A DNA stretch of 57,965 bases. It comes from Escherichia coli. Its GTDB lineage: Bacteria; Pseudomonadota; Gammaproteobacteria; Enterobacterales; Enterobacteriaceae. Within the stretch, counting starts at the first letter, position 1, and every line of letters starts with the position of its first letter. The position numbers are program-made. The stretch is from the NCBI RefSeq assembly GCF_003334765.1, contig NZ_QOWT01000026.1; one strand, given 5' to 3'. Below are positions 1 to 6,000 of this stretch, piece by piece.

Positions 1-3000
1 ATGACTCATGATGAACCCTGTTCCATGGCTCCAGATGACAAACATGATCTCATATCAGGGACTTGTTCGCACCTTCCCTAAAGCATTCATCGTGTTGCCC
101 GTATTCATACCCGTGTGACTTTGACAACGGTACTCCTTAGAAACTCTCTTCGGACTGTTGCCGAAATGTTTGCGGAACGCATAAATAAAATAAGATGTAC
201 TGGCATAACCACATTGTTCGGCAATTTTATTGACTGAACCTTCTACGCGTATCAAATTTTTTGCGTGCTGCATTCTTGCATCTAAAAGAATCTGTGAGAA
301 TGTCGTTTGCTCTTGCTTAAGTTTTTTCTTCAACAGGCTTTCACTGATGTACAGGCAGTCACAAATATCTTTCAGCTTCCATGGGTGCGCCAGCTTCATG
401 TTGACAATATTTCTCACTTTCCCAGAAACGGATAGCACACCGTTAGTTAATAGTGTAATGAAACCTTTGCATGCGGCAAAAATAGACAGGCAAGAAAAAA
501 GCAAAAGTTCTGAAAAATTATGATGATTGCGTTCTTCCGAGTTGAGATAAGCAATCATTTCATTAAGCAATCCAGTCGGTACATTTGAAGCACGTAAAAA
601 CTTCGCAGGAACAGGCACCGTCACTGTCTGGATGTTAGTGCATTGTAGATATTTTTTAATGGTATTTTCAGTAAATCCGATCTCTTTAAAATGCCGCTCA
701 TAAGGTTCAAAATGCGTACGAACAGCGTTATCTACCATCAGGATCTCGCCGTCAGAGAAGGCGTAATCTTTATCTAAAATGTTAGCGTTGAAGGCATGAT
801 GAATAAATATAACAGAACAAACGAGCGACATTTTATCTCCTTAAAACAATAAAGTTTTTATCGATACTTTTTTAACATTTCATATTTATAATTTGCTGTT
901 TGTTTTCAGCCTTGCAAACTATTGATAATGAAATGTGTAAGATCTCTTGCAATGCGACCCATTTCTGAAATACTCAGCTGATCAATTGCCGAAAAAATGG
1001 CTATCAACGTAAGTGTCAGTAATAAGACAACCACAATTGCAGACATGATTTCTTTATAGTTGTCTCTTTGCGTGATTTTGTTTTTCACTGTGGTCGCATG
1101 CATTTCAAATATGTTTATTTAGCGGATAACGTTAAAAATCGTTAATCAGTATGCTTAATATAACAGGCTGGAGAAAAGAGGAAATAGGACTGGTGCTTCA
1201 GTACTGAGCGGAGTTTCTTACAGCTGTAGGCAGAAGTTTATATCTTATAGTATGTAGTTTAATTTAATCCATGTGAGCAAATTGCGAAATAATAGTCAAT
1301 GAGGAATTCTTCTGCTGTGCGGATGACAGCAGAAGAAATGAGAAGAGGCATTAATTTGATGGTTCTAATTCAACCGGAATACTTTTATAGCCAGGAATGC
1401 CACTTAATGGATCGTGGTTATCAAGTGTTAGCATGTGATTCGATTCTGGAAAATAGGTCACCAGTGAGCGGTCAGCCATAGGGTAAATGACCACTTTTAA
1501 TCTATCCATGCGGCGTGAGCTGCGCTTACCGTCTGGCGTAAGCGCAATAAGATTAACTCTTTCGCCGTTTTTTACACGGCAAATTTTAGCTTGTTTAGCA
1601 CTCATAAAGACCACATCTCGTTGACCGAATACCCCTCGATAGCGATCATCCATACCATAAATCGTCGTGTTGTACTGATCGTGGCTGCGTACTGTCGCCA
1701 TGACCAGCTTACTGTTAAACGCTGAAGAGGGATCTTCTAACAGCCCTTTGCTGGTAATGAAATTAGCCTTACCTGACGGCGTCATCCAGCGCCTTTCAGC
1801 AGCTGCATTTATCAGGTGAAAACCACCGGGATGACGGATGCGCTGGTTATAGTCGGCGAACTCTGGCAGCACAGCTTCAATGTCATTGCGAATGCGATCA
1901 TAATCTTCCACCAGATACTCCCAGGCTACCACGCTCTGGGGTAGTGCTGCCTGCGCGATTCCCGCGACCACTGCACACTCTGATTTCAGCATTACACCGG
2001 CGGGTTTTAACACGCCACGCGAGGCATGAATCATCGACATTGAATCCTCAACGGTTACCGCCTGCGCACCGTTTTTTTGCATGTCAATCTCGCTACGTCC
2101 CAGGACCGGCAGAATATAGCTATGCCGTGCGGTCAACAGATGAGAGCGGTTAAGCTTAGTGGCTACGTGTACCGCCAAATCTAATTGCGTTAACGGTACA
2201 GCGCTCGCTTCCCGATCTGGCATTGCCAGCGCAAAATTGCCCCCCATGCAGATCAATGCTCGAGCCTGCCCCGTACATATTGCTTGCATGCTGGCAATTG
2301 CAGCATGTCCAGGTGCATGAGGTGGGGTGAAGCCATAGCGCTCACCCAGACGAGCCAGAAACTCTGCAGACGGTTTCTCGGTGATACCGACGGTTCGGTC
2401 GCCCTGTACATTAGAGTGTCCACGTAGTGGGCAGATACCCGCACCAGGCTTGCCAATGTTACCTTTCATCAACAGCAGATTGACCAGTTGCTGTACGTTC
2501 TGGGTACCATGTTCGTGCTGAGTGATCCCCATTCCGTAACAGATAATGGTGCGTTCGGCAGCGGCATATGCGTCAGCCAGTTCGGCGATTTGTGTCTGAC
2601 TTAGTCCAGAAATACGTTCGATATCTTTCCACTCGGAATTGAGAACGTCACGGCGTAGCTCGTCAAAGCCGACGGTATGCGTTTGAATAAACTCGTCATC
2701 AAGCAATGAAGGCCGACCTGCGGCGCTTGCAGCATCATCGCGCTCAATTAACAGGCGCATCATCCCCTTGAGCAACGCCATATCGCCACCAATGCGCACG
2801 TTATAGTAGGCACTGGCCAACTGAGTCTCAGAGTTCGTCAGCATTTCAAACGGGTTTTGCGGTGCGGTAAATCGCTCCAGGCCACGTTCCTGTAGAGGAT
2901 TGATGGCGATCATTTTCGCTCCCCGTTTCACTAAAGCGCGCAACGAAGTCAGCATGCGAGGGTGGTTTGTACCAGGGTTATGCCCAATGCAAATGACTAA

Positions 3001-6000
3001 ATCGCACTTCTCAAAGTCTTCCAGCAACACGGTCCCTTTACCTACACCGATACTCGCTGCCAAACCCACGCTTGTCGGTTCATGGCACATGTTGGAGCAG
3101 TCGGGAAAGTTATTGCTCCCGTATTCACGGGCAAAAAGCTGATAAAGAAAGGCAGCTTCATTGGAAGTGCGGCCCGAAGTATAGAATTCAACCTGATTGG
3201 GATCACTATAGCTTTGAAGGCGTGCGCCAATTTCGTCGAAAGCTTGTTGCCAGCTTAATGGCTTGTAACAGTCGCTGACGGCATCATATTTCAAAGGCTG
3301 AGTGAGTCGCCCCGCAGCCTCAAGCTCGTGGTCTCCCCAGGTAAGTAATGATTGAACCGTATTCTCAGCAAAGAAAGAGGCGTTTACCTGCTTATCCGTG
3401 ACTTCCCAGGCGATTGCTTTTGCGCCGTTTTCACAAATGTCGAATGACGCACTGTGCTTAGGATCTGGCCATGCACAACCCGGACAGTCAAAGCCCTCTG
3501 GCTTATTCATGTCAAACATGGCAATAACATCCTGGCGTATATCCATCTGCTTACGTACTGCATTCGCTACGGATTTAACAGCACCCCAACCACCTGCAGC
3601 ACCCTGGTAGGATTCAATTTTTTTCTTCATCTACTTATCCTGTGTGGAAATGAATTATTAGGATTTGTAATAGCGATGATGCACAGTACATACAAAGGGA
3701 TTATCGCCAACATGGATATATAAGAGTAGGGGACTACTCTCTTTCTATTTTTAATCTATTATCGTTAAACAATAGATTAAATACGATAAGTTAAGCATCA
3801 TCTCTCATAGTGTTTAAATTAACATATTTTTCAATATAAAAAATAAGACTCTGGCTTCAATTGTGCGCGGATTTTCTTACAGGTGTAGGCTAATAGCCTT
3901 CACAAAATAATTATCCGCGCAATTTTCGTGAATGGAGCGCATAGACTAAGGTCAAAATCACAATTATTCATAGATAAAAGTGACACCAATGACTGACTGG
4001 ACGGTTCCGGCTGAAACCTTGTTTCCTGTTTGTCCATAGGTTGCGCTTAAACCCAGAGGTACTTTGCTTTTATTTACTGTCCCCAGGGAGACATTTTCTC
4101 CCGTAGCCAGTATTTTTCCATTACGCATTAGAGTGACACCCACTCCCGATGCTTTTGTTGCATCAGGTGCTGTGTTAGCAAACACTTGTCGGCTACTGTC
4201 AGTGGTGGCACCCGAAAGATAAAATGAGAGCTTTTGTTCGCTTGAGCAATATACGCCAAGGGGTATTTCTGCGCTTCCAGGAAAGTCCGGGAGATCCACG
4301 GTGACATTACGACTATCAACGGTGCAGCCGCCTGTTGGCATAACAACATTGTTATTTGAAATAATATTCCACGTAAAATTACGCGGATTTCCGCTTCCTA
4401 ATGTTGCAATTTTATACATATGAATACGGGCAATGACTTCCCCCGCTTTTATGACAACTCCACCGGCCGCCCCAACTGGGGTAATATAGAGTTTTAACGG
4501 TAATGGCATCGGTGTCTTATCACCAATATCCAATACGTTGGTATTTGTCGTCAACGGGAAGGGGTAGGTCACATTATTCCAGTACAGCGATCCTTTATAT
4601 GACTGTAGGGAGCCTGCGAAAGCTGAGCCTTGTACCAGGTTTATATGATCAGTGTCGTACCAGCCGCCGTAATCATTCCAGCAACTTATATGCTGAGACA
4701 AGTCTACAACCAGATTCTGGCCCGGCTGTATTACAGGGTCGAGATTAACATAAACAGAGGTTGTACCTGCTCCAATACTTGACCCGCCATCGACATTACA
4801 ACTGAAGGCAAAAACTTTGCCTGCCATTAATAGAAGATAAATACCGAACAGGACCTTTATACTGATTGTTTTACCCATGATATATCCTAAGGTTAAAAAT
4901 TGATTTAAAAAGAAGGCTAAGAAAATCGAATCGACGTTATTGCCAGGTGTAGATCACATTGATTAGCGCCTCGATCGTTCCCTGGCTTGCGTTTCCATTC
5001 ACCGTGATAGCTCTTGCCTTAAGTGGAAACTGTGCATTACGAGTGATCTCATCAACAATAACCGTTTTGCTATCGCCATTTTTTAACGCAGCATCCTGGT
5101 CATCCCTCAGCTCTATCTGAATATTTTCGGCAGTACCTTCATTTTTGTAATAACCCGTATTGTCAGTTGAACCTGTCACGATTGCCGTCACTGCACTTGT
5201 TTCAACCGGACAATCGGTTAATGACAAAGTAATATTGTGCCAGCCAGATGCAGAACCAGGTTGTTGCAGATTGCGCGTATAAAGATCCCCGAGATTAACG
5301 TTAGCTTCTTTGGTTTGAATAGTGCAGGGTTTAGCGACTACCCGACCATTAACAGTGATAGTGACATCGGCGGCCTGGAGAGTTGCTGTGAATAACGCGC
5401 AAAACGTAGCTAACAGGAACCTCTTGTGAAGTCTTTTCATATCTGACTCTGATTATTGAAATTCAAGGGTAAAGGTTGCCGAAGCCCTCACCAGTCCCGG
5501 ATTGACGGACTTCTGAGTTGACTTCAGACGAGCGGAGTAAGGCAAAATATTGTTCTGTTCTGGTACCAGTGGGATCCACTGCATCCCGGCATGAAGATCA
5601 TTCAGTTTCACCGGACGCATATTTGCGTCCAATATTTCTATACCCAAACCGGAGGCCGTATTGCTTCCTTCATCCAGTTTCAACAAAGTATTATTTTCTG
5701 CATCCTCAATACCGTTAAATGCAACCCGAACCCCCGTTGTCCCTTTGCTGCATTCACTTAACGTAATCTGAAAAGGGACGGCTGGACTTGTGCTACCGGT
5801 CGTTGGAAATTGTCTGGCACTGTTTTTTTGGAGATCTACGGTAAAATTAAGCGAATCCGATGAGACTGTGCAGCCATAATCGAGGACGCGCCCGCTAATT
5901 TTAATAACGCTATCTGCGGATAAAGCAGAATAGGTGGTTAACCCCAGACATAAACCGAGGAAAATAATGTTATTGTATTTCATAATCTATTGTTCCTTAG

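Follow-up and report, generated by a model that had tools for sequence, protein, structure and literature searches.

The left end of a 57,965-bp stretch of Escherichia coli DNA (the whole stretch that was analysed, hereafter the window) corresponds to the ydeO-safA-ydeP-ydeQ region, as read from a listing of open reading frames (ORFs) and from comparison with annotated genomes. Positions 78-9144 of the window share 99.97% identity with positions 1582934-1592000 of E. coli K-12 strain MG1655. Two 18-bp motifs in this region, one upstream of the safA-ydeO unit and one upstream of ydeP, are considered here as candidate operators of EvgA, a NarL/FixJ-type response regulator. The motifs and the genes they concern are as follows.

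1215-1232, promoter orientation minus: candidate safA-ydeO EvgA box (box 1), TTCTTACAGCTGTAGGCA on the plus strand
3874-3891, promoter orientation minus: candidate ydeP EvgA box (box 2), TTCTTACAGGTGTAGGCT on the plus strand, occurring once; in MG1655 coordinates, box 1 corresponds to 1584071-1584088 and box 2 to 1586730-1586747
906-1103, minus strand: safA, 65 aa, first gene of the safA-ydeO unit and of the box 1 promoter (ORF list and annotation of the identical MG1655 DNA)
55-831, minus strand: ydeO, a 258-aa ORF whose last codons are swapped for the end of an IS5 element (253 aa in MG1655)
1351-3630, minus strand: ydeP, 759 aa, gene of the box 2 promoter, with its ATG at 3630

The end of box 1 lies 112 nt upstream of the safA ATG (1103, minus strand) and that of box 2 lies 244 nt upstream of the ydeP ATG (3630, minus strand), in agreement with a preliminary description of this DNA that had assigned one motif to the upstream region of each unit. 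That description located box 1 correctly at 1215-1232 on the plus strand, while the coordinates it gave for box 2 (3864-3881) are 10 nt off; that stretch reads TGCGCGGATTTTCTTACA and takes in the first 8 nt of the box only. In gene orientation, box 1 reads TGCCTACA-GC-TGTAAGAA, with an imperfect distal half and a perfect promoter-proximal half, and box 2 reads AGCCTACA-CC-TGTAAGAA, again with the perfect half-site on the promoter-proximal side. The two boxes thus have the same orientation relative to their minus-strand genes.

The boxes are identical at 16 of 18 positions, or at 17 of 18 when the frame is moved by one or two bases to include the common flanking T's. No pair of 18-mers reached 17 matches in 400 shuffles of both intergenic regions (mean best 13.7, maximum 16), and the near-identity that had been claimed for the two motifs is borne out. 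They had also been called palindromes. This is true of the TACA..TGTA core, which is symmetric in both, and only loosely true of the boxes as a whole, in which the gene-distal outer bases are asymmetric; 14 of 18 positions are self-complementary in box 1 (7/9 pairs) and 10 of 18 in box 2 (5/9 pairs), so that neither is a perfect palindrome.

The EvgA consensus is an 18-bp inverted repeat, TTCYTACA-NN-TGTARGAA (TTCYTACANNTGTARGAA). Box 1 departs from it at one position and box 2 at two, and these are the sole sites with two or fewer mismatches in the 57,965 bp. At up to three mismatches, the window holds three matches compared with 0.61 expected. A consensus search of MG1655 identified a site in the emrK-evgA intergenic region (TTCTTACGCCTGTAGGAT), a perfect site upstream of frc (TTCTTACAACTGTAAGAA), and two sites upstream of yfdX, all of them at units known to be under EvgA control (PMC3720670, PMC8174306). 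A weight matrix was trained on these four sites, with boxes 1 and 2 excluded; gadE was left out of the training because its upstream region (MG1655 3656500-3659500) contained no site with three or fewer mismatches. When applied to the window, this independent matrix ranked box 1 first (21.65 bits) and box 2 second (19.16 bits), followed by the next match at 9.52 bits, against a window mean of -24.3 ± 8.3 bits. The proposed fit of both motifs to the inverted-repeat EvgA box is therefore upheld by the mismatch counts and by the matrix alike. Two further stretches, at 273-290 within the ydeO coding sequence and at 57721-57737 near the right-hand IS5 junction, have three mismatches each and score 8-9 bits, and were judged to be chance matches.

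Conservation was assessed in a promoter alignment of eight lineages, comprising this window, six diverse E. coli (L054-L059; 96.9-98.8% locus identity) and L004, the one divergent Escherichia lineage in the comparison, whose YdeP is 96% identical. With L004 included, 11-22% of the positions in the boxes are variable, compared with 48% of those in the flanking DNA on the distal side. At both promoters, all eight lineages have the same proximal half, TGTAAGAA, and box 1 varies at two of its 18 positions. Changes within the boxes fall at positions 1-2 and in the central NN; in L004 alone, the ydeP box is also altered at core position 8. At position 2 (gene orientation), the ydeP box has the K-12-type AGCC in this window and ATCC, which is nearer to the consensus, in six of the seven other lineages. 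This is a natural operator variant, through which the inducibility of ydeP could differ between strains.

These results bear on whether the two motifs could be a chance likeness in AT-rich intergenic DNA, with no function. The motifs are short, the intergenic regions have a GC content of 33-36%, and the three-mismatch match at 273-290 within the ydeO coding sequence demonstrates that weak matches do arise. Chance does not, however, account for a 17/18 pair that was absent from all 400 shuffles, for a next matrix match that scores about 10 bits lower, for boxes that are conserved relative to their flanks, or for an orientation and spacing that are equal in both promoters. We regard this explanation as extremely improbable, and it is effectively refuted by the matrix gap, the shuffles and the conservation.

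Among 5,426 complete E. coli genomes, 4,792 contain the 106-bp stretch around the safA box and 5,312 the one around the ydeP box, nearly always with at least 95% identity. Outside Escherichia, no box with three or fewer mismatches was found within 4 kb of ydeP orthologues in three Edwardsiella species, Yersinia, Raoultella, Burkholderiaceae and others. Both EvgS/EvgA and SafA have been described as essentially limited to E. coli and Shigella (PMC9496106, PMC8174306), and the absence of the box near ydeP in other genera fits this published confinement, the absence of evgAS from those genera being taken from the same papers.

Two side observations concern the distribution of YdeP itself. Its identity to the E. 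coli protein is 85% in Edwardsiella (L005, L006 and L008), 67% in Yersinia and 56% in Raoultella, a pattern that suggests horizontal transfer of ydeP between the Edwardsiella and E. coli lineages. A contig labelled as belonging to a ‘Candidatus Nanosynbacter’ metagenome-assembled genome (L003; JARKOR010000108.1) encodes a YdeP that is 100% identical to that of the window and carries both EvgA boxes; this contig is almost certainly E. coli contamination of the bin.

Published work on EvgA points to the same two promoters. The safA-ydeO promoter is bound directly by EvgA (PMC9496106), and direct regulation of ydeP by EvgA is stated in a passage of PMC8174306 that cites Itou 2009. Every gene known to be directly regulated by EvgA carries an EvgA binding site (PMC4283999), and inverted repeats upstream of yfdX and frc are described as bound by EvgA in a passage of PMC3720670 citing Masuda & Church 2003. 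Induction of both the safA-ydeO and ydeP units by EvgA has been reported (PMC9496106, PMC8174306, PMC11210196); under mild acid, EvgS phosphorylates EvgA, upon which ydeP, safA-ydeO, gadE and other genes are activated (PMC11210196, PMC8174306).

In their study of 2003, Masuda and Church reportedly found the 18-bp inverted repeat with AlignACE and obtained EvgA gel shifts on six such sequences. Mutation of the repeats upstream of ydeP and b1500-ydeO is said, in the same study, to have resulted in less induction and less acid resistance.

A second explanation is that the motifs are operators of some other regulator, such as PhoP, YdeO, GadE, RcsB or NarL, and that EvgA control is indirect. PhoP has been reported to lower the activity of the safA promoter (bioRxiv 10.64898/2026.05.06.723403), YdeO to repress its own expression and, indirectly, that of ydeP (PMC11210196), and several of the candidates belong with EvgA to the NarL/FixJ family. 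Yet neither intergenic region contains a match to the PhoP box, the GAD box, the NarL 7-2-7 arrangement or the RcsAB box, even at permissive thresholds, and the lone weak match resembling a YdeO box (1262-1290) does not overlap an EvgA box. Moreover, emrK, frc and yfdX, which have only EvgA control in common (PMC8174306), carry the motif in their upstream regions as well. We consider it very unlikely that a regulator other than EvgA is the one that reads these sites.

The YdeO-box-like pair is an observation in its own right. It has the form ATTTAA-N17-CGAAAT with two mismatches and lies on the distal side of the safA EvgA box, at a distance of about 30 bp. It might be linked to the autorepression described for YdeO (PMC11210196) or be a product of chance. 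TGTTAT and TGTTAA were entertained as PhoP half-sites and rejected, as neither has a partner half-site 11 bp away or a match to the PhoP box.

Between each box and its gene, the two promoters share further features, which are listed here.

1166-1214, minus strand: safA spacer, from box 1 to the extended -10-like element, with in-register likeness to the ydeP spacer
1157-1165 (read 1165-1157), minus strand: putative extended -10-like element of safA-ydeO, TGTTATATT
3825-3873, minus strand: ydeP spacer, from box 2 to the extended -10-like element, the counterpart of 1166-1214
3816-3824 (read 3824-3816), minus strand: putative extended -10-like element of ydeP, TGTTAATTT
3860-3855 and 3838-3833, minus strand: sigma-70-like pair, TTGAAG and TATATT, inside the ydeP spacer, an alternative promoter candidate

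The distance from the start of the box to that of the extended -10 element is exactly 67 nt in both promoters. An ungapped comparison of safA with ydeP, taken from the end of the box up to and including the -10, gives 36 identities in 58 positions, compared with 15.3 ± 3.2 for shuffled sequences (z = 6.6), and none of 20,000 shuffles reached 36. The common blocks of the spacers are A(A/C)TCCGC adjoining the box, TGAAGC, and AGTC(C/T)TATTT. On the distal side of the boxes the ungapped comparison revealed no similarity, and the leaders of safA and ydeP downstream of the -10 are unrelated. Across the eight lineages, the N of TGn is the only position of the extended -10 elements that varies; L004 has TGC, and the TG and the hexamer are retained.

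From these elements, transcription is predicted to start at about 1150 for safA-ydeO and at about 3808-3809 for ydeP, which would place the box centres at about -73.5/-74.5; in MG1655 the predicted starts fall near 1584006 and 1586664. A 178-nt ydeP leader (PMC11210196) agrees with the predicted ydeP start, since counting 178 nt from the ATG at 3630 leads to 3808. For ydeP, the extended -10 is favoured over the sigma-70-like pair because the homologous position in safA has no -10: TTGAAG-16-TATATT was rejected as a common promoter, given that safA reads TCTTTT and L004 TTTATT at the position concerned, and that a leader of 178 nt is in keeping with the extended -10. Two short palindromes located between a box and its promoter (CAGTACTG in safA and CAATTG in ydeP) were likewise discarded as a common element, as their register is off by one and the one in safA is broken in L004. 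A generic promoter scan returned nothing for safA.

Taken together, the evidence indicates that both motifs are very probably operator sites of EvgA, at the safA-ydeO and ydeP promoters respectively. Co-regulation of the two units by EvgS/EvgA, as put forward in the preliminary description, is supported by the consensus, the independent matrix, position and orientation, conservation and the published papers. A few points weigh on the other side. The distal half of box 2 agrees with the consensus at 6 of 8 positions and the box has only 5 of 9 palindromic pairs; the box position of about -74 depends on a -10 that is predicted and on a single, indirect leader length; and the sole result of the generic promoter scan for ydeP, TTGAAG-16-TATATT, would put the ydeP start near 3826 and its box at -56.5.

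EvgA boxes at safA-ydeO and ydeP have already been described, and the identification made here is correct and ordinary. The consensus, the two promoters, the organism and the near-K-12 MG1655 sequence are the same as in the published accounts of the EvgA box (Masuda & Church 2003 and Itou et al. 2009, by way of PMC4283999, PMC3720670 and PMC8174306), so that boxes 1 and 2 are the published sites themselves; nothing of substance differs, and the ydeP box has the K-12-type G at position 2. The emrK/evgA, frc and yfdX sites of MG1655 share with them the TACA-NN-TGTA core, a near-perfect proximal TGTAAGA(A/T) and a degenerate distal half. They differ in that their spacers bear only a weak resemblance to the safA and ydeP spacers, in that yfdX has two boxes, and in that the emrK box is located in a divergent intergenic region.

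The close likeness of the safA and ydeP promoters could potentially be explained by common descent, whereby duplication of a module of about 80 bp (box, spacer and extended -10) supplied the two neighbouring units with their promoters. Boxes 1 and 2 would then resemble each other beyond other EvgA boxes through ancestry and not through selection alone, an account that is compatible with EvgA function. It draws on the 36/58 ungapped likeness on the proximal side (15.3 ± 3.2, z = 6.6), which ends at the distal edge of the box, on a separation of just 2.7 kb between the two promoters, and on pairwise spacer comparisons in which the safA-ydeP pair (z = 6.6) is far closer than the other pairs of EvgA promoters (z = 0.9-2.9). 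Against this, emrK, frc and yfdX at another locus display a weaker in-register likeness, and functional constraint could explain part of the resemblance; the leaders beyond the -10 are unrelated, and no duplication junctions are visible. We hold duplication to be a possibility of somewhat less than even standing.

The weaker likeness just mentioned extends to a common register. In the emrK, frc and proximal yfdX promoters, a -10-like hexamer is found 69-71 nt from the box start, a range that holds for all five promoters. When the safA-ydeP pair is excluded, the mean in-register identity among the five is 22.9/58, compared with 16.2 ± 1.1 for random shifts, and none of 5,000 such shifts reached it. 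For none of the five does a shift of up to 6 nt in either direction give a better alignment than the in-register one. Two controls, the emrK box read towards evgA and the distal yfdX box, showed no such similarity (z from -1.5 to 0.4). Among the columns kept in at least four of the five promoters are a CA (about -56/-55) and a TC..ATT(T) element (about -39 to -32), the latter in the place where a -35 would be expected. This element resembles a degenerate EvgA half-site, and the distal half-site is situated 42 bp, or four helical turns, upstream of it.

It is conceivable, and we put it forward with reserve as an idea that is on balance unlikely, that EvgA promoters are fixed-register composite modules of about 80 bp, consisting of a box at about -82 to -65, an invariant CA, a TCYT(A)...ATTT element in place of the -35 and a -10 that is often extended, instead of a freely placed 18-bp box. 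If this were true, EvgA would make a second contact of low affinity, or would fill the promoter cooperatively up to the -35 in the manner of BvgA, and the safA and ydeP promoters would look like duplicates of one module.

The closest homologue of EvgA is BvgA of Bordetella, a NarL/FixJ regulator. BvgA acts from a high-affinity inverted repeat far upstream of promoters with a poor -35, at which additional dimers occupy the intervening sequence as far as the -35. In the case of EvgA, such filling is only suggested by the conserved TCYT(A)...ATTT element (about -40 to -31). Another parallel is offered by class I activators that bind upstream, as exemplified by CRP at about -72.5. The predicted centre of the EvgA boxes, at about -73.5/-74.5, would be about seven helical turns upstream of the start, on the same face of the DNA as RNA polymerase. 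EvgA belongs to another activator family than CRP, however, and in this comparison the contact with the alpha C-terminal domain (alpha-CTD) is assumed and the start sites are those predicted from sequence.

Other features of the locus include ydeQ and a stable hairpin between the two units.

3964-4878, minus strand: ydeQ (ORFs and comparison with annotated genomes)
1307-1337, minus strand: hairpin directly 3′ of the ydeP stop codon, terminator-like with a weak U tract, between ydeP and the safA promoter

The hairpin has a predicted RNA folding energy of -17.5 kcal/mol (z = -4.6), and its 12-bp stem is identical across the eight lineages. Its place at the 3′ end of ydeP is consistent with safA-ydeO having its own promoter. 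In L004, the 7-nt loop of the corresponding hairpin (~6295-6325) is approximately the reverse complement (ACGGATG compared with CATCCGC), as though the hairpin had been flipped as a unit.

Insertion sequence DNA forms the two ends of the window. Positions 1-77 and 57889-57965 are one and the same 77-nt terminus of IS5 in inverted orientation, the last 77 nt being the reverse complement of the first 77; this length suggests that the window represents a complete contig of a short-read assembly, bounded by IS5 repeats. MG1655 has no IS at either of the corresponding sites, which are located at ~1582934 (3′ end of ydeO) and ~1641123 (the gap between ynfU and cspB in the Qin prophage). On the left, the IS5 adjoins a CTAA target (78-81) in the final codons of ydeO, and the tail of the ydeO ORF is IS5-derived. 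The ydeO/IS5 junction (55-81) was matched across in only 3 of the 5,426 complete E. coli genomes. Two of them have the related ISKpn26 at this place (93% identity), and in the third the match is made up of two parts separated by about 500 bp.

Elsewhere, positions 52216-52618 are the only segment of the window that is not collinear with MG1655 (403 bp compared with 781 bp at 1635074-1635854). This segment falls in the stfQ/tfaQ tail-fibre region beside pinQ in the Qin prophage, and the probable explanation is either inversion by Pin or a variant form of the tail-fibre segment. Outside it, the window is 99.8-99.9% identical to MG1655, which places the strain near K-12 without being K-12.

The regulation that these sites would support can be outlined as follows. 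It is established that under mildly acidic conditions the EvgS kinase becomes active and phosphorylates EvgA, which in turn switches on both promoters, with YdeP (acid resistance), SafA (an activator of PhoQ) and YdeO (an activator of gadE) as the outputs. Judging from the behaviour of the family, a dimer of phosphorylated EvgA would occupy each 18-bp inverted repeat, with one subunit on each TACA/TGTA half-site. The box would be situated about 74 bp, or about seven helical turns, upstream of the start, and would be followed by the conserved spacer in fixed register and an extended -10 of the form TGnTAWWTT. EvgA would then act from upstream, in a class-I-like position, at a promoter without a good -35.

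The fixed-register architecture, together with the apparent duplication of the safA/ydeP module, is the only part of this analysis that might potentially be new. If it has not been described, it would provide a testable model of how an EvgA that resembles BvgA recruits RNA polymerase to promoters without a -35. The boxes themselves are the cis-elements that link the sensing of mild acid by EvgS/EvgA to YdeP-mediated acid resistance, to the YdeO-GadE glutamate decarboxylase cascade and, through SafA, to PhoQ/PhoP, three outputs that matter for the survival of E. coli and Shigella during passage through the stomach.

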